Below are positions 4,991 through 57,419 of a stretch of DNA of 64,000 nt, in pieces (position 1 is the stretch's first letter; each line of letters opens with the position of its first letter). This stretch comes from Octopus vulgaris (Eukaryota). The notes beneath the pieces were generated by a model. The model was not told the DNA's origin, did no database searches, and was given only the letters and a program-made list of their open reading frames with translations. The stretch covers positions 160,084,001 through 160,148,000 of the forward strand of contig OX597814.1 in the NCBI GenBank assembly GCA_951406725.2, read 5' to 3'. Both the position numbers and the translations under genes were made by a program.

Positions 4991-5941
<951 letters not shown>

Positions 5942-5968
5942 AATAATAATAATAATAATAATAATAAA

Positions 5969-6497
5969 ATGCCTTGATGCAGTACCAGACAATGGCTCTC
6001 GTGTTATCATGTACATTGTTTTGTCTTGGTATAAAAGGTGGGCTACAGCAAATATTCTGCTCAATACCACAGATTTGCTTGTCAGTTGTTTGATCTTAAC
6101 CAGTTGAGCATTTCCCTTAGTGGCTGACGATATGTGCATCTCTGATCACGAGTAGAAGTAGTGGGAGAGCATCATAGCCAAGTGTTGTGAGGGATTCTTT
6201 GGGGTTTGAATAAATCACCTCTGGAAACATAGGTGTTTCGTTCAACATCTTTAAACAACCATTATTCAGGGACCTTTTGAGCGGGATGGGTAACTCGACC
6301 AGAAGAAAATTCTAACTGGGCGCCACCTGCAAGGTCATGTGCTGTTTATCTTGATATGAGAACACCATATCACGCACATATGGTTGTGTTGCATTTGCGT
6401 GGTGTACCCTTATCAGACGGGTAGTCATGATGAGTATACTGGGCGTCGTATATTTTACCCTAGTGTCACTTTGATGGTATGCACTGCTCTCTCACTC
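5969..6497 (+). mobile_element. Non-coding (TAA)n-embedded element, copy 1 (small internal deletion near the 5' end)
   Basis: Highly similar to 6569-7124 along its whole length; both ends abut (AAT)n. Confidence 0.85.
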
Positions 6498-6568
<71 letters not shown>

Positions 6569-6570
<2 letters not shown>

Positions 6571-7124
6571 GCCCTGATGCAGTACCAGGCAGTGACTCTC
6601 ATGGCCTCTGATCTTAACTGATTGGAAGTGTTATCATGTACATTGTTTTGTCTTGGTATAAAAGGTGGGCTACAGCAAATATTCTGCTCAATACCACAGA
6701 TTTGCTTGTCAGTTGTTTGACCGTAACCAGTTGAGCATGTCCCTTAGTGGCTGACGATATGTGCATCTCTGATCACGAGCAGAAGTAGTGGGGGAGCATC
6801 ATGGCCATGTGTTCGGGGGGATTCTTTGGGGTTTGAATAATTCACCTCTGGAAACATAGGTGGTTCTTTCAACATCCTTAAACAACCCTTATTCAGAGAC
6901 CTTTTGAGCGGGATGGGCTACTCAACCTGAAGAAAATTCTAACTGGGCCCCACCTGCAAGGTCATGTGCTGTTTATCTTGATATGAGATCACCATGTCGC
7001 GCACATATGGTTGTGATGCATGTGCCTGGTGTACCTTTATCAGACGGGTAGTCATGATGGGTATATTGGGCTTCGTATATTTTACCCCAGTGTCACTTTG
7101 ATGGCATGCACTGCTCTCTCACTC
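6569..7124 (+). mobile_element. Non-coding (TAA)n-embedded element, copy 2 (apparently full length, 556 bp)
   Basis: Starts ATGCCCTGATGCAGTACCAGG, ends GCACTGCTCTCTCACTC, with (AAT)n on both sides. Further copies at 12159-12301, 28386-28546 and 60811-61067. Confidence 0.88.
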
Positions 7125-10019: not shown

Positions 10020-10700
10020 AAGACGGAGCTGCAGTCCTGGGTGAAGAAAAGACTAAAATTGACAGCCTAGTGCCTGGAATATTATCAGATACTCACTGCC
10101 CGCTACCTGTCGATGAGAGTTCGACAAAGCAACACATAATGATTTAGTGGTTGGTAAGAAGCGCTGTCGAGAATGAACTACCTTGTCTCTTTCAGAGGAC
10201 TTTGGAACCGGAAACTACTAAACATAAATGCTACCGAAGCTTAGTACCACTTCGAAATAAACTGTAAAGGCATGGAGATGTTATCTGGTACAACTGTCCG
10301 AGATGCACACAAAATGACGCAACTGTACTGCATGCACACATACAATATTCGAGCGTCGTTGAATTGTGGAGTTATGTCGACCAACTGTTGTTGCGTGTAG
10401 GACGAATCTGGCTATTAGCTGATTCCGTCGTGATATTCTACTCACCACTTACTTTAACAAAACGGGATAGGAGGTATTCTATCTAGTGTCTATGATGAAA
10501 GAAGTTATGGGCGAACGCGACAGAATCAAAAACAGACACCTATCCTTTCGATCAAGCCTTCATCAACATTTTCAAGCTCCACATGAAAAAGAAAGTGAAA
10601 GTAGAGAGCGAACTAATCAAAAGATAGGGGATTAGCAAAAAATGATTAATGTGAACGGAGCTGTTCTAAGCATGCGCTTGAATATTGGAGAACAGTAGCT
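10020..10700 (+). mobile_element. Decayed L1/Tx1-like LINE C-terminal fragment
   Basis: CPRCTQNDATVLHAHIQ...LWSYVDQLL near 10294-10390 resembles the C-terminal CCHC knuckle of L1/Tx1 ORF2; a paralogous piece lies at ~11325-11430. Boundaries are approximate. Confidence 0.55.
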
Positions 10701-10999
10701 GGACGAAGATTTGTGCCCATGATGTTCGGCGTGATCATGGATCTGTAAGGTGCCTTGATTGGTCCTATTTAGAGTTTCCCTGTATCAGAAAGGCTACAAT
10801 CATCCAAATATACTTTTTTTAATCTCATTTCTTTCTCTCTTCCCTTTCTTCCCTTCATCATTTGAACTAATTGTGTATTCAAATATCAGAGGCCAACATC
10901 GCATTCCATCATGCCAGGGTTGATAATAGAGTACTAGTCAAGTATTAATGCTGATTTAATCTACTATACGTTCCTACTACTAATCTGTGACCCAGAGCC

Positions 11000-11700
11000 A
11001 ATGTAAAAAATCATTATTATTTGCAGTGCTATGTCAAACGCAAACCAAAGTTGGATCTTTCACATGTGGTATGTTGCCAGACGCTCACTACACTCTATCA
11101 GCTAGACAATACAGTCAGTGGAACGTTAATCATCCCATTCTACAGTGGATTAAGAAAAGATGTCATAACGATGGTTTCAGTGCAATCGAAGTAAGTCTGA
11201 GAAATTTATTTGGAGGATTTTCAGGTCGGATTTTATGAACAATTTTCAAAAGCCCTTGACCTAGCAGTGCTTGTTTGGAATAAATTCTATAAATATATAT
11301 TTATTGAAGACGCCAGCAACGGAACCTGTCCGAGATGCGGGCAGGGAAACGAAGCTATCCGGTTAGCACTTGTTCGGTGTCTATGCAATACTAATTTGTG
11401 GTTTGAAGTCGAACAGCTGCCATTGTGAAGGTCGTCCCACTACCTTTCTTTCTCAAGGAAGAGTGAAGAGTCTGATGGCTATTGGCATAAAGTTGTACAA
11501 GGAATGCAAGTGAAAAGTTGTCCTCTGAGATCAAATCCTCATCAGCTTCGCATACCACTTGAAGACGATGATGATGTAGCGAAGCAAACTTCCTTCCAGT
11601 AAATTTTCTGAAAGGTGGACGAAATCAAGAATGTAGCTCAAGATCGCGTCCACTGGTACGAAAGAGTCGCAGCCCTATGTTCCTTACGGAGAAATGTGGA
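11000..11700 (+). mobile_element. Second decayed L1/Tx1-like fragment
   Basis: GTCPRCGQGNEAIRLALVRC...LWFEVEQL in ORF 11210-11428, homologous to the previous feature. Confidence 0.55.
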
Positions 11701-12158
11701 CTAACAAGATTAACTGGGCGAAAATGGTGAAATTGGTGTTGCTACATAGACCTTCACACATGCAGCTGTAGACTGGCGGCAAGCATCTGTGGGTCCTCCC
11801 ATTGATGTGTCGAACTAAGCTGGGGTTTTGTATATCCGATTATCCGAATTGGTTGTTTCTATTTTGGAGAGACTTTATTAGTTTCTTGCTTTTTATTGCT
11901 TTGCTACTTCTTTCTTTATTATTTCTCTAAATTATTATTATTAGATTTCTTTTTGTACCGTATCAGTTTCTGTATTTTGCGCTTGTAAAAGCATTAGTGT
12001 CTCAGAGCCCTTATGACTAATACAGAATTATTATTATTATTATTATTATTTTTGTTTAGCTCAGGTTCGGTCTTATTCCTGGTAGGAATTATGTGGATAG
12101 CGGGTTACTACCTGTAACTTTAGGTATCCACAAAGTTTTCAGCATTATTATTATTGTT

Positions 12159-12301
12159 GAGAGAGAGCAGTGCATGCTATCAAAGTGACACTGGGGTAAA
12201 AATATGCGAAGCCCAATATACCCATCATGACTACCCGTCCGATAAGGGCACACCACGCAAATGCAACACAACCATATGTGCGTGATATGGTGTTCTCATA
12301 T
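12159..12301 (-). mobile_element. 5'-truncated copy of the (TAA)n-embedded element
   Basis: Matches the last ~145 nt of 5969-6497, and its 3' end runs into a short (AAT)n. Confidence 0.85.
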
Positions 12302-13094
12302 AGTAATCATCATCATTATCATCGTCATAATCGCTGTCGTCATCGTCTTTCTGGATCGATGAAATAAGTATCAGTTGAGCACTGAGGTCAACGTAATTGA
12401 CATAAATCCACTCCTAAAAATTTGCAGCCTGATGCCAATATCAGAAACGGATATTATTATCGTTATCATCTTTATTTTGTGGTTTTGGTCTTTTCATATG
12501 ACTTCTTTCATTCAGTGTATCTCTGTGCATAGGAAGTGTGTGCAGCATTACCTTGCAGGAAAAATACGTTGCAGAATTTCCCTTTATGTTTTTTGTGGTG
12601 TTTTAATCTTGCTCTTGAAAGCTTTTATTTCATGGGAAGATTCTTCTATTCTTTTAATGGTTTCAGTAGCCTTAATTTATTTCCTATCAGTTTTGTTGCC
12701 GCTGTATGTCTGGAAGTTGGTCCATGATTGAGTTTGTAACAGCTGATATTCCCTGAGTGTATCCCTGAAAGGTTGGCTGGTCCGTATCATCGCTAGGAGT
12801 ATATCCAATGGGTTTTTTTTTTATGTTTCAGTAAAGGTTTATTTTTATATTTCTGATTTCATTAGGTAGCCAATTGAAAAACTGAGGGACTCAAAATATC
12901 AGAACACAGAATAGAGTGTTCTTGCTTATAATTTCGAAGGTGGTATATTTGGAAGTTAATACTGTCTACCAATTTGTGCATTAAAATTTTCTCAAGGACC
13001 GAAGCTTAGATACGTATATCTTACTCTAAGATAACTATGTACTTAGTTGCTTTACTGAACTGAAAATAGCAATTCTAGAATACGCTTTGTGCCT

Positions 13095-13420
13095 TGAAGA
13101 GATTCTTTTGAATTGTGTGCCGTGTTCTAATAACTAGTTCGGTTTTTATGTCATTATTCACATACTTTTTAATGATATTCAGCGCACCAGTTATTATTGG
13201 CACTAGTTTCTTTTTTTCTTTTTTTTTATCTCAGATCACATACCTTAAATCTATTTCGAGTTTTTGTACTTTTATAGCTTTTCTAATTTCCTGCAGGAGA
13301 TGATAGTAGGAGGAGAGCGAGATGGCTATCAGGGCGCATAAGTTTTCGTATAATCTTTGATAAGGATATTTGGGTTGTATGTCTTGAGTATCGACAATCA
13401 TGTCGAAGCTATATTAGTGA
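13095..13420 (-). mobile_element. Heavily decayed RLE (R4/Dong-type) fragment
   Basis: Minus-strand pieces such as PNILIKD, K.LEID and LVPIITGALNIIKK parallel the RLE C-terminus at 5171-5587. Confidence 0.55.
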
Positions 13421-14688
13421 AACATGTCGAGTTTGGTTTTCACTTACACCACATAAACTCAATAAGTTATTTAACGGTGTTTCTCGAAGCGAATGCGACT
13501 ATAAACAATAGTTTGTGATATACTAGATTAAAAACCAAGTCTTGGATTGACAAGCATATTCTAAAAGTAAACGTAATTTCTGTTTAAAAATAAAGTGACT
13601 ATATATTACCCAATGGATACAACCACGTATCCGGTTTTGTGTTTATATATTTTCTATTTGCGGGGAATGGACAACCGGAAGTGTGTTGGATGATTGTTTA
13701 TATATGTTGATTGCAACCGGAAATGAGGTGATTGAGTATTTATATATGTTGATTACCTCCACTATGCTGGTTATGGTAGTCGAGTTTTATTATTTTAGTT
13801 TGATGTATGCTATATGTGAAGCATTGATCTTCTGCTGCTAAATTGCTTTTAGTCCAGAGCTCTTGAGCCATTGTTAGTTTTCATATGGGGCTATTGTCTC
13901 TCTGCTTCAAATCTTGCCGGATATTGAGCAAGGAGACTACTTTTCTCTGTTTGTTACATATTTTTTTAGTTCAGCATTGAACTTATCTTTTGTTTTTATT
14001 TCCTACTTTTTCTTTTGATTTGCAATTAAACCTTTTCTATCGCAGTAATTAGTTTCTCCTTTACAACTTATTATTTCCTTATAAAGACAGACAAACATTT
14101 TGTTTGTTTTCTTTCGTATTGTTTTATTATACAGTGTACCTTAGCTTGCTTCTAAGTATTTCTGTAGAGACACTTTATCATTTAGTTATAAGACCCATTC
14201 CCCACTATTATCCTGGTAAGTACAACCTATCTATACATCGGCTTAAATACTATGAGTTCAGAGCGTAGTTAACAGTTATCTAGTTCTTCTGTCCCCGTAA
14301 CTTAGTGGTTCGGCAAAACAGATGGATGGAATAACCAGGCTTTAAAAAATAAGTACTGAGGCCGATTCATTTGACTAAACATTCTTCGAGGCGATGCCCC
14401 AGCATGGCCGTAGTTTAATGACTGAAACAAGAAAAAAAAGCTCTTCAGTTCACTAACCTTCAGCTTCGTTTTATTGAACCCGCAGTTTATGGACTAGTTT
14501 TGCTGGTTTGTATATAACTATTATCTAATTTCTAGCATCAAGTTTGTTTCCAATACTCATGGCTCATTTGCACTCCACTTTTTTCTAATTTACTCATTCA
14601 TTTCTGTACACAGTACCATATGTAAGATTCATCAACTCCAAAATGATTATGGTTATTTCGTTCTAATTCTCTGATTTCAGTGTCTAGA

Positions 14689-14825
14689 TCAGTCACGAGG
14701 AAAATGCAACCCGCAGGAATTTTCGGATTGGCACGCCTATCGAAATTACCTTGAATATGTCTAGTAATGCAACATGAACCATGTCTCTAGCGGCCCATTT
14801 CTCGAAAAAGGTTGCACATGCCTGG
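14689..14825. mobile_element. Probable hAT-type MITE remnant
   Basis: CAG... start, ...GCGGCCC...AAAGGTTGCACATGCCTG end, TCTA-containing flanks. A related terminus (GGACAAACTGTGGCCTGCGGGCCACATG) occurs at ~51157-51200. Confidence 0.4.
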
Positions 14826-14918
14826 TCTAAATATAACTCAATTTGAGTTTCAATGAATTACTATTTTCTTTGATAATTTTGTATCCTCACATATGTATTT
14901 TATTATTACCACAGAATA

Positions 14919-15345
14919 AGGCGGTAACCTGGTGCGCCGGACAAAATGCTAAGCGGCATTTCGTTCATCTTTACATTTCGAGTTCAAATTCCGTGGAGGT
15001 CGACTTTGTCTTTCATCCTTCCGGGGTCGATGAAACAAGTACCAGTTGAGTACTGTCGTCGATGTAATCGACAAGCCCCACTTTAAGAATTCTGGACTTG
15101 TGCCCTTAGTAGAAGGGATTAGTACAACAGAATAAGACAGCGAGTTCACAGGATCGTTAGCACGCCGGGGTAAATGTTTAGCAGCATTTCACCGTCTTTA
15201 AGTTCTGTGTTTAAATGCCACTGTGGTGGATTTTGTCTTTCACTCTTTCGGTGTCGATAAAATAAGTACCAATTGAACACTGGGATTTATGTAATCGACT
15301 TCTACCCTCAAAATCTGCTGGTTCTGTGCCTGCTGTAGAAATAAT
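14919..15345 (+). mobile_element. Two tandem SINE A copies
   Basis: Family A head and core at ~14919 and ~15135. Confidence 0.82.
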
Positions 15346-15601
15346 TCACATATAGATTTTTGTAAGTTACCTAGTGGGAACAGTGCATTTTCTACAGTTT
15401 TTTAGTCATTCATATAATATAGATAATACATGATTTGTCTTCAGTGTTTGTTGCTACTTCTGGTTTGAATCACCAAACTTGTTAATAGAATCAATAGAAT
15501 AATAGTTAATAGAAAAAAAAAAACATGGAAGAGAAAAGGGTTCACTGTGGAATGGGTTATTTAAAAAAAAAAAAATTCTTTTCATTTTACAGTATAAGTG
15601 A

Positions 15602-24767: not shown

Positions 24768-24954
24768 AAGGTGAATGAATTATCCTAGTATGGATAATTC
24801 GGTTAACCGATACCTAGGTAGCAAATTCACGTAAGAAAACACGGTTGAAGCTATATGCCAAGGGCAGGGATCCCGTGTTCTCGTGTGTAAATTTGTGTGT
24901 TTTTTTTTAACTATGAATAAATGAAAGAATGGAGTCGAACGACGATTTTAACAA

Positions 24955-25055
24955 AATTCCTTTACTCTCGACATGTTTCGAAGGCTGCATATTCCTAATT
25001 CCGAAGGAATAAAGGGTGCATTATGCCGCCATCTCATCAGGAAAGACAAGGAACT
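24955..25055 (-). ncRNA. Mirror-image type I hammerhead on the minus strand
   Basis: CTGATGA = complement of 25034-25040; GAAA = 24976-24979; then CATGTC. Helix III is 2 nt shorter than in the right arm. Confidence 0.68.
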
Positions 25056-25196
25056 TATGTCAGCACCATGAAGAGCAAAAACATTTAGATGACTGCCCAA
25101 ATGATGTCCACAGTAATAAATGATTAAATAAATTATTACTGTGGACATCATGTGGGCACTCATCTAAAAGTTTTTGCTCTTCATGGTGCTGACATA

Positions 25197-25299
25197 AGTT
25201 CCTTGTCTTTCCTGATGAGATGGCGGCATAATACACCCTTTATTCCTTCGGAATTAGGAATATGCAGCCTTCGAAACATGCGTCGAGAGTAAAGGAATT
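25197..25299 (+). ncRNA. Type I hammerhead ribozyme (minimal helix III)
   Basis: Stem I CTTTC(25207-11)/GAGAG(25285-89), extended by AGTTCCTT/AAGGAATT; CTGATGA 25212-18; stem II GATGGCGGCATA/TATGCAGCCTTC; GAAA 25273-76; helix III C-ATGC-G; GTC cleavage triplet 25282-84. Confidence 0.8.
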
Positions 25300-25331
25300 T
25301 TGTTAAAATCGTCGTTCGACTCCATTCTTTC

Positions 25332-25368
<37 letters not shown>

Positions 25369-54535: not shown

Positions 54536-54548
54536 TCCCTCTCTCTCT

Positions 54549-56097
54549 TGGGTCATGGCATATTCATGCCTTTCAAGAATCATTGCTTGTTCCTCTATTT
54601 ATTTCAATCTCTTGCAGCATCATCCAGGTCTTTCTCGCTCTACACGTTCAATCTCTTCTTTATCCAGTCGAACATCTTCATTCTCTGCCTTCCTTTCGCT
54701 CGCCTTCCCACCCGCTTAGTCTCCACCATGTAACGCTCCATTCCGTCATCCTTTCTGAGAAAATGACCCACAAATCTCCACTGTCTCTCTCAAGTAGTAT
54801 CCGTCAACTGTCTTTTCAGTTTTATCTTCTTCAACACTTCCACATACGTCACCCACTGTACCCACAAGATTCTAAGCATTTTTCTATAAAACCATATTTC
54901 TGCAGGTTTGAGTCTCTTCTCCATGACTTTGCACCGACCAGATCTAGCACTTCAATAGTCTTTTCTTGACTTCCATTCCACTTCACTTCGCACAAAAAAA
55001 TGCTCCTCATATCCATAAAAGTCTTCTTTGATAATCCAATTCTGCACTTGATGTCCTTATCTGACCTTCCATCTGATGCTATCCAACTTCCCAGATATCA
55101 GAAACTGTCCTTCTGCTCTATCCCAGTTCCATTCACCGTCAAGCAATATGCGGGTACCTGTGCTTTCTTGGTACAGACCATTGAGAAGGTTTTCTGGCAG
55201 TTAATCGTCAATCCGAGCTTTCCATTCTCCTCAGTCACGATATTAATCAATCCCTGAAGCTTCTCTTTTGTGTCCACAAACAAAGCCGTATCGTCTGCGT
55301 ACCTGAGATTATTATAATTCCTTTCCCCCAGTTGTAGCCCTGATCTTGCTTAGAGCTTTCTCACTATAGGTTGAATAAATCAGGTAACAAAATACAACCC
55401 TGCCGGACGCCTTTCTGAATGTCAGTCCAGCCGCCCAGTTCTCTATGCACTCTGATGGCTGCTTTCTGATCCCAATACAAATTTAGAATCATTCTTAGGT
55501 CTTTCCCATCAATCTCGAGTTCTTCCAACATTCTCACAAACTTTTCGAGCTTGATACAATCAAATGCATTCACATAGTCAATAAAACAGATGTACAAGTC
55601 TTTTTGTTACTCTATACACTTTTCCACTGACGTCCTCAAGCACAGAATTGCATTTCTCGTCTCCTTTCCTGTTCGATAGTCGAGCTGTTCATCTGATAGG
55701 TTTCCCCTAATAGTAGTTTTCATTCGATTCAACTCCACACTCAAAATAATGTTTGTCATATGACTCATTAGGCTTATCGTTCAGTGATTTTTGCACTCGA
55801 TTAATCCGGACTTTTTAGGCAAGGTGATGAAGATTGATTCCAGCATTTCTTCAGGAACATCCCCCGAATTGCAAGCATTGTTCGCTATCTCTGTTATTTT
55901 TCTACTCCCAAACTCCCCAAAGCATTTACTAGTTCAAACGAGATGTTATTATTTCCCGTCACCTTTCCACTTTTCATCTTGTCCAAAGTCTGCTTGATTT
56001 CAGCTGCTGCAATCATATGGCCATCCATCGGCTTGCTTATCTATGGTTTTTCTTTCCTTCTATCATCAGCGTAAAGACTTTTGATGTAATCAGTCCA
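54549..56097 (-). mobile_element. RTE (BovB-like) LINE fragment, RT domain to 3' end, ending in a (GA)n tract at 54458-54548
   Basis: YICFIDYVNAFD, KGVRQGCILLPDLFNL and NNLRYADDTAL (YADD at ~55291-55302) motifs, with frameshifts and stops. Confidence 0.92.
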
Positions 56098-56108
56098 GGC
56101 CAGTTTAT

Positions 56109-56169
56109 GGGGTAACTCTGGGTTTCCCATCCATAAAGAGTTTAACTTTATGCCGTATCATCAGACCCC
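56109..56169 (-). ncRNA. Mirror hammerhead candidate on the minus strand
   Basis: Minus strand reads GGGGT CTGATGA TACGG CATAAAG ttaaact CTTTATG GATGG GAAA CCCAGAG TT ACCCC. Confidence 0.55.
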
Positions 56170-56184
56170 AAGACCAGTCGGCCT

Positions 56185-56245
56185 GGGGTCTGACGATACG
56201 CCATAAAGTTAAACCCTTTTTTGGACTGGAAACCCAGGTAACCCC
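56185..56245 (+). ncRNA. Type I hammerhead ribozyme candidate
   Basis: Stem I GGGGT(56185-89)/ACCCC(56241-45); CTGACGA 56190-96; stem II around CCATAAAG/CTTTTTTGG; GAAA 56229-32; helix III CC-CA-GG; GTA triplet 56238-40. The base of stem II is non-canonical. Confidence 0.65.
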
Positions 56246-57419
56246 ATAAACCGGCCCCAACCCGGTGCCTGTAGATTGTGAAATGATCTTAATCATACAT
56301 CTATACTGCATCTCCCCTACAAATTCCACTCTTTGTTGCGATGTTTTACCTAGTGTACATCAACAATCCTGAGAATATGCCAGTGGAGTGCAAGATCCTT
56401 GTACGGCCTCCCATGCTCGACAAAGTGAAACGATGGACGCCACACTAGTATGGATAATTTGGACTATTTCTTCCCAAAGTTAAAATGAGTTTGCGTTGAG
56501 CTGATGCTCCTGTACAGCAAAAAAATGAATTAGCCAAGTTGCAGAAGAATCGGTGAAAATTCAAAACCAAAACCTTAACAAGGAGCAAAAAAGATAACCC
56601 AGAGTTAAAACCGGTGGGGAAATGTCGTCGATGGCCTATGCTGCAAAGAGAGTGAGGAGCTTAAATAAAAGTATGCCCCATCAGTTAGAAGCTAAGTAAG
56701 AAAGCGTATCACTCTCGCCACCCTCCAGTGCAACGTCTTTTCCATTTTGTCTTCTGGGACCATGAGACGGTCTGAATTACAGGGAATTCGCGTCCACTCC
56801 TTAATGTAAAGTTACTCCATACAATATATTAGTACCGCAAGAAAAGTGCTTAATAACAGAGTAATTTAAATTTTAAAATGGATTCACGTAAAAAAAAATG
56901 CATGCGTGTGACAGCATTTTTTAACCCTTCGTGTTTGCACTAGCCTATGAGGGGGAAGGCATCTATGCTGTCGCTTAACCTGCAACATATAGCAGTAAAA
57001 TCTTTCTTAAATTACACCCTACTATCTTAAAAAGGAAAAAACTCATCGGTTTTGTGAAATATGAGATACAAGGCCGGAATTGCCACGGTTTGAATGCCTT
57101 TGACTACAGATTTCTTCTGTTCAGAGTTGACCTGAACTAAACACAACGCAATGTACAACTTCTGTGATTACATCTATTTGAATTTGATGTAAAGTTTGTG
57201 GGGGTAAATTCGACTCTAAGCTAAAAATATTTAAATTCAAGATGACATATGTACTTTTCGCCAGAAAATTAATCTTCCATTGAACTAAAATCATTGCTAT
57301 TGTTTAGACCTAGATCAGTTCTCTAACCCAGCTGCCTAAAAGTATTCCAGCTGTAATAACTCCAGCTTTTCAGTATATCTAGGGCTACAATAGGCAATAT
57401 GTTCCTTTATATATATATA

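Follow-up and report, generated by a model that had tools for sequence, protein, structure and literature searches.

Hammerhead ribozymes of metazoan Penelope-like elements (PLEs) are described, in the parts of the source available to us (PMC4209133), as having a long helix II, an extra base after A9, a palindromic helix III and low activity in vitro; the G10.1-C11.1 pair is highly conserved among them, and pairs of hammerheads on opposite strands lie about 100-700 bp apart. Helix II closings by U-U are known which still cleave, and there are A-U exceptions too. In Penelope elements, head-to-head inverted pseudo-LTRs (pLTRs) are the most frequent inverted form and have been ascribed to self-priming, with junctions formed by microhomology without duplication and with insertions into LINEs (PMC3846280), while a 5'-truncated inverted copy with an optional tail is standard (PMC8557442, in the sections available). 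The optional 3' tail of these elements measures 30-40 nt. A PLE hammerhead cleaved only with protein and was dispensable for insertion in vitro (PMC11167929). Retrozymes, hammerhead core variants and octopus repeats are treated in PMC7229834, PMC3088659, PMC8969392, PMC13282606 and bioRxiv 10.64898/2026.07.22.740005.

The window analysed here is a stretch of 64,000 nucleotides of Octopus vulgaris (contig OX597814.1), in which a palindrome of 159 bases (56098-56256) comprises two 73-nt arms (56098-56170 and 56184-56256) flanking 13 nt. The arms are identical at 64 of 74 aligned columns (by BLAST, 83% across 161 nt). We consider it probable that the palindrome consists of two 5'-truncated copies of a high-copy hammerhead repeat, joined head to head at 56184, and that this repeat is the 3' end (pseudo-LTR) of a PLE or of a non-autonomous, retrozyme-type derivative (Table 1). 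The initial annotation had described a mirrored hammerhead pair with arms of about 73 bp around a 13-nt spacer. The pair is real: a type I hammerhead descriptor gave two matches in the whole window (both strands), one in each arm, whereas 30 order-2 Markov shuffles averaged 0.0 matches per window. The arms stand as described and the spacer as such does not; on the minus strand its 13 nt are the family's 5' leader of the minus copy (with about three changes), and the true junction of the two copies is therefore 56184, a single base common to both. No further copy of the repeat or of its leader was found elsewhere in the 64-kb window.

Table 1. Features of the palindrome and its flanks, by position in the window.
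Feature	Position	Strand	Evidence
Decayed 3' half of RTE-type LINE with several stops and frameshifts, from about residue 462-470 of 965-997-aa relatives to (GA)n tail	54540..56097	-	Pfam RVT_1, tblastn; 82% to best relative
5'-truncated hammerhead-repeat copy, base of extended helix I (56184) to family 3' end (56097)	56097..56184	-	Closed fold, leader pairs with 3' end; 19-28 contigs per run stop at 56097, mixed flanks
Type I hammerhead: helix I 56170-56165/56113-56108, CUGAUGA 56164-56158, helix II 56157-56127, GAAA 56126-56123, helix III, GUU triplet, predicted cut after 56114	56108..56170	-	Descriptor and fold
Leader ('13-nt spacer'), outer 5' strand of helix I of minus copy	56171..56184	-	By-eye comparison with loose-end consensus before 56184 in 4 runs; about 3 mismatches
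Second copy, truncated at helix I 5' strand, head-to-head join over 1 base (56184)	56184..56256	+	Contig mapping, arm alignment
Type I hammerhead: helix I 56184-56189/56241-56246, CUGACGA 56190-56196, helix II 56197-56228 (3' strand damaged), GAAA 56229-56232, helix III, GUA triplet, predicted cut after 56240	56184..56246	+	Descriptor and fold
Single-copy right flank	56257..56370	.	Depth 15.9 in X1; no tblastn match

Copies were surveyed by mapping contigs of 4 of the 24 listed runs (X1, X5, X7 and X11, with four species labels; X1 may be the window's own source) onto 55801-56700 at 80% likeness, and the results given here draw on 40 of 213 substitution rows, 12 of 45 indel rows and 24 of 498 loose-end rows. 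The palindrome is not an assembly artefact, because contigs of other assemblies bridge it: X5/23 covers 56005-56217 and so spans the central junction, X7/31 crosses the boundary with the LINE, X1/8 and X5/24 connect the plus arm with the right flank, and parts of the locus are bridged by contigs from species A, B and D. Over the arms the summed depth was about 170-510 times that of the single-copy flank in all four runs (5275-6692 vs 15.9 in X1, 1052-1325 vs 6.3 in X5, 1335-1824 vs 5.7 in X7 and 10481-15495 vs 30.3 in X11), depth not being the same as copy number. As it was high in every run, the hammerhead repeat is common.

Contigs ending at 56097 numbered 28, 21, 22 and 19 in the four runs and passed there into unlike, A/T-rich flanks (agreement 0.54-0.57); this sharp end is the fixed 3' end of a repeat with many insertion sites. 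Some of these contigs share a short extension of about 8-14 bases resembling the optional PLE tail. This extension was also seen to resemble the start of the leader, which hints that the unit is circularly permuted and about 110 nt long. Contigs running 5' of 56184 into a single leader numbered 43, 32, 33 and 54 (agreement 0.61-0.72), and in X5 eight contigs turned off the minus arm at position 56171 and went on into unrelated letters (agreement 0.49), an indication of single truncated arms.

At least seven other head-to-head joints were found among those listed, three of them in two species. Left and right arms were joined at 56139>56175, 56143>56195, 56152>56189, 56172>56184 and 56174>56184, and two more joints carried extra letters, 56182>56183 (+31) and 56175>56239 (+20). 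Per run, a joint is seen in a single contig whose sides measure 23-57 nt, contigs break inside palindromes, obscuring the mirrored fraction, and joints placed at 56184 may really sit further out in the leader. Two more listed joints belong to another repeat. Among the joints listed none was tail to tail and none was a full tandem (head-to-tail) joint, contigs breaking in tandem repeats as well; one X11 contig carried two copies in direct order, as a partial repeat. The mirror is probably a by-product of insertion and not a fixed two-ribozyme unit, because the junctions vary between copies and many contigs continue into the leader. A special fixed design behind the back-to-back layout was accordingly not supported, and the question in the initial annotation whether other copies are single, tandem or mirrored was answered in part by the other mirrored joints, the leader-continuing contigs and the partial direct repeat. 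As a separate observation, the right arm of the X1 joint 56175>56239 (a single contig) starts no more than 2 nt from the predicted cut, which is what a template cleaved by the ribozyme would give.

A fixed 3' end, variable 5' truncation and head-to-head inverted copies are hallmarks of Penelope elements and are all present. Membership of the Penelope class is what we infer for the repeat, to which no ORF is linked; no Penelope-like ORF was recognised by eye in six-frame translations of the flanks, and Pfam gave no match (neither Penelope RT nor GIY-YIG) on two right-flank frames. Under this reading a Penelope RT-endonuclease would copy the RNA from its 3' end and halt early, after which the new strand would fold back, or a second priming would occur, leaving a second, inverted copy whose 3' end, like that of the first, faces outward; the arms would drift apart after insertion. 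The hammerhead of the parent RNA would act as a dimer, paired through the short palindromic helix III, and cleavage would probably be slow in view of the weak base of helix II. No paper on the family was found in the literature searched, and repeat libraries beyond that search may contain it; the arm motifs were absent from the available part of the supplement of PMC8557442.

The variability of the central junction also fits internal deletions of a long foldback element. The palindrome would then descend by internal deletion from a DNA transposon of foldback or MITE-like type, in which the long inverted ends once arose from a hammerhead repeat and the ribozyme is a passenger, and the high depth, the symmetric ends starting GGCC and the CCA on both sides of the palindrome (56095-56097 and 56257-56259) would suit such an origin. 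However, the A of the left-hand CCA is itself the end of the repeat, and this end lies exactly at the base of helix I, which is a feature of the RNA. The X5 contigs leaving at 56171 and the X11 contig with copies in direct order argue against it as well, and a hammerhead MITE was not suggested by titles in the literature searched. No convincing target duplication was seen at the locus. We regard a DNA transposon as unlikely and retain the two truncated copies of a Penelope-type repeat.

To the left, the truncated copies adjoin a LINE which we take to belong to the RTE clade and which is probably a neighbour and not part of the hammerhead element. Pfam RVT_1 was detected in two of the five LINE segments tested, and twelve relatives align to 56097 at most (one continuing for three more residues), with no tblastn match to them anywhere further right; the part of the RTE upstream of its truncation point did not turn up at any other place in the window. 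The palindrome had been placed exactly at the truncation of the RTE fragment in the initial annotation; the RTE does stop at 56097, to which the end of the repeat was corrected, but a link of the repeat to RTE was not borne out, the 3'-end flanks of other copies being heterogeneous. Resumption of the RTE to the right of the palindrome was considered and ruled out, with no tblastn match and no joint 56097>56257 listed.

Alternatively, the RTE reverse transcriptase could have copied the RTE 3' half and then switched onto the hammerhead RNA, U6/L1 chimeras being a precedent for template switching of this kind. The minus copy has the orientation of the RTE and abuts its truncation point on the 5' side, the two overlapping by 1 base, and one species-F contig, which matches only from 56259 with 301 unlike letters before it, might fit a joint absence of RTE and palindrome. 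Nevertheless, other copies end in mixed A/T-rich flanks and not in RTE, and a search for a target duplication spanning the RTE tail and the right flank turned up none, just a single 6-mer at a distance of 27 nt. A chimera also leaves unexplained the inverted arm, seen again at other loci, and PLE insertion into LINEs, of the kind cited above, is already described (PMC3846280). A chimera made by the RTE enzyme is thus quite improbable, and insertion of the hammerhead repeat beside a neighbour is preferred.

Two other repeats were observed to the right. Decayed pieces of a multi-copy repeat lie at 56376-56422 and 56521-56670, with flanks common to the four runs and an X1 depth of 480-615 against 16; we assume that they resemble an RTE 5' untranslated region. 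Further away, an open frame of 378 aa at 62605-61382 (minus strand), next to (AAT)n, represents the C-terminal half of a non-LTR retrotransposon ORF, 58% alike to its best relatives and presumably R4/Dong-like.

Both arms of the hammerhead repeat contain CUGANGA, GAAA and UH in order with A15.1-U16.1, and helix I has 6 Watson-Crick pairs in each, extended and closed by pairing of the leader with the 3' end. Helix II has 7 bp in the minus arm and is damaged in the plus arm, and helix III as a monomer has 2 bp. It had been noted that the arms have diverged while the core was kept, with a core difference only at the variable N. Stem I and core are indeed intact in both and N7 is C or U, but H17 differs too (GUA on the plus strand, GUU on the minus), and conservation is a weak argument by itself: the chance that 10 arm differences miss 11 core columns is P=0.18 (P=0.018 with helix I added post hoc). 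The helix III consensus is palindromic, with a pairing-preserving difference between runs (CCCAGGG in X7, CCTAAGG in X11), and helix I shows a G-C to G-U change between consensus lines; these changes come from the consensus of mixed contigs, not from an alignment, and are hints, not a covariation test. Indels among the rows listed concentrate in the helix II 3' strand and the helix III loop.

At the closing position of helix II a U or A faces G in both arms and the R10.1-Y11.1 pair is absent, in agreement with the non-canonical stem II base already noted. U then A after CUGANGA, and G before GAAA, occur in both arms and in all four run consensus lines. When the U is read as the extra base after A9, helix II closes A-G, followed by 2 pairs, a bulge and about 8 pairs. 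Judged from these sequences, helix II apparently does without the usual G10.1-C11.1 pair across the whole family, although outside the core no pair of the hammerhead is more conserved than this one; the closing pair of helix II is the sole unusual point of the repeat. A two-purine closing pair was seen in none of the rows of PMC4209133 Fig. S3 examined by eye.

Could the motif words be incidental, the repeat not being a ribozyme family at all? A hammerhead was absent among the seven Rfam matches in 55900-56500 and neither arm was scored as one (across the whole window, the Rfam matches listed, 150 of 225, were all microRNA-like repeats), and the non-canonical helix II base and the P=0.18 for the arms only would also be in keeping with this. 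Two descriptor matches against 0.0 expected, together with a complete core, three helices, an extended helix I and a palindromic helix III with pairing-preserving changes, make it very improbable. Outside the window, the hammerhead pattern gave 0 matches in metagenome contigs and 0 in prokaryote genomes. Two matches in viral contigs were rejected as chance, the rest of the motif being missing.

Folding predictions bear on what the locus could do. The read-through hairpin has a predicted energy of -103/-131 kcal/mol on the two strands, compared with -38/-57 kcal/mol for the hammerhead fold, and the pairing probability of helix I is 0.00 in read-through RNA of either strand and 0.70-1.0 in isolated arms. 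Single arms fold no better than shuffles (z -0.7 to -1.2). There is one sense ribozyme per strand, and the antisense arm is transcribed first on either strand. A read-through transcript is thus predicted to form a hairpin of about 73 bp burying both ribozymes, and a cleavage assay on the native palindrome would be expected to fail because of the helix I probability of 0.00. The predicted plus-strand cut, after 56240, is the one given previously. A parent RNA would need a second sense copy, and the mirror offers none because its second motif is antisense. The locus is likely inert as a ribozyme, a dead insertion and at most a source of double-stranded RNA, and the activity of the hammerhead of the repeat itself is uncertain given the non-canonical helix II base. 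A hammerhead on each strand inside 159 nt, together with the rod-like fold, would suit a viroid-like circular RNA that carried ribozymes of either polarity and was copied into DNA; this origin is hardly credible, as the arms extend 16-17 nt beyond both cut sites, the junctions vary, the leader occurs in one arm only and no full head-to-tail repeat was among the joints listed.

A second mirror pair was observed in the window at 24917-25337. Its arms are 96% alike and contain type I hammerheads at 25207-25289 (plus) and 25045-24965 (minus), with the canonical G10.1-C11.1, a very long helix II and a palindromic helix III; (TA)n follows on the right. BLAST found no similarity between the two pairs; the palindrome at 56098-56256 was accordingly rightly described as unrelated in sequence and as an independent hammerhead family. 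The pair at 24917-25337 has the same head-to-head layout, is younger and likely comes from another Penelope-type family, and reading palindromes as inverted insertions explains it as the same kind of event in another family.

As the head-to-head layout is already known, the locus is mostly an ordinary retroelement scar. It supplies a minimal, many-copy example of Penelope head-to-head junctions, usable for testing the self-priming model (PMC3846280, as set out in the part available). More speculatively, and with little likelihood, the family may be a very short circular retrozyme of about 110 nt whose hammerhead works with helix II closed by two purines, present in hundreds of copies in no fewer than four species; its mirrored insertions would then supply the genome with long hairpins feeding RNA editing or small-RNA silencing of the family.

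Compared with the hammerheads of metazoan PLE pseudo-LTRs (Cervera and De la Pena 2014, PMC4209133, in the parts available), the palindrome has the same type I fold with an extra base after A9, long helix II and small palindromic helix III, and the same dispersed, high-copy, truncated motifs. Opposite-strand pairs 100-700 bp apart, as in Cercyon of Schistosoma mansoni and in the Cotesia proviral PLE, are like it, and a helix II bulge is also described for Drosophila virilis. It differs from them in its A-G or U-G instead of G10.1-C11.1, in a longer helix I (6 bp plus an outer stem), in having no linked ORF and in cores only about 20 nt apart. With the inverted pLTRs of Penelope it shares a 5'-truncated head-to-head copy joined at the 5' end and perhaps an optional 3' tail (PMC3846280; PMC8557442, Fig. 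2 legend), as well as a microhomology junction without target duplication and insertion into or beside LINEs (PMC3846280); unlike them, it consists solely of two hammerhead-bearing ends, 159 nt in total. Set against retrozymes, whose known monomers are of about 220-350 nt, it shows no full tandem unit. Non-LTR retrozymes, as far as described in the available parts of PMC7229834 and bioRxiv 10.64898/2026.07.22.740005, are likewise short, non-coding type I hammerhead repeats with an extended helix I, often dispersed as monomers and with proposed mobilisation by PLEs, and the axolotl retrozyme has a weak helix II base (U-U) too.
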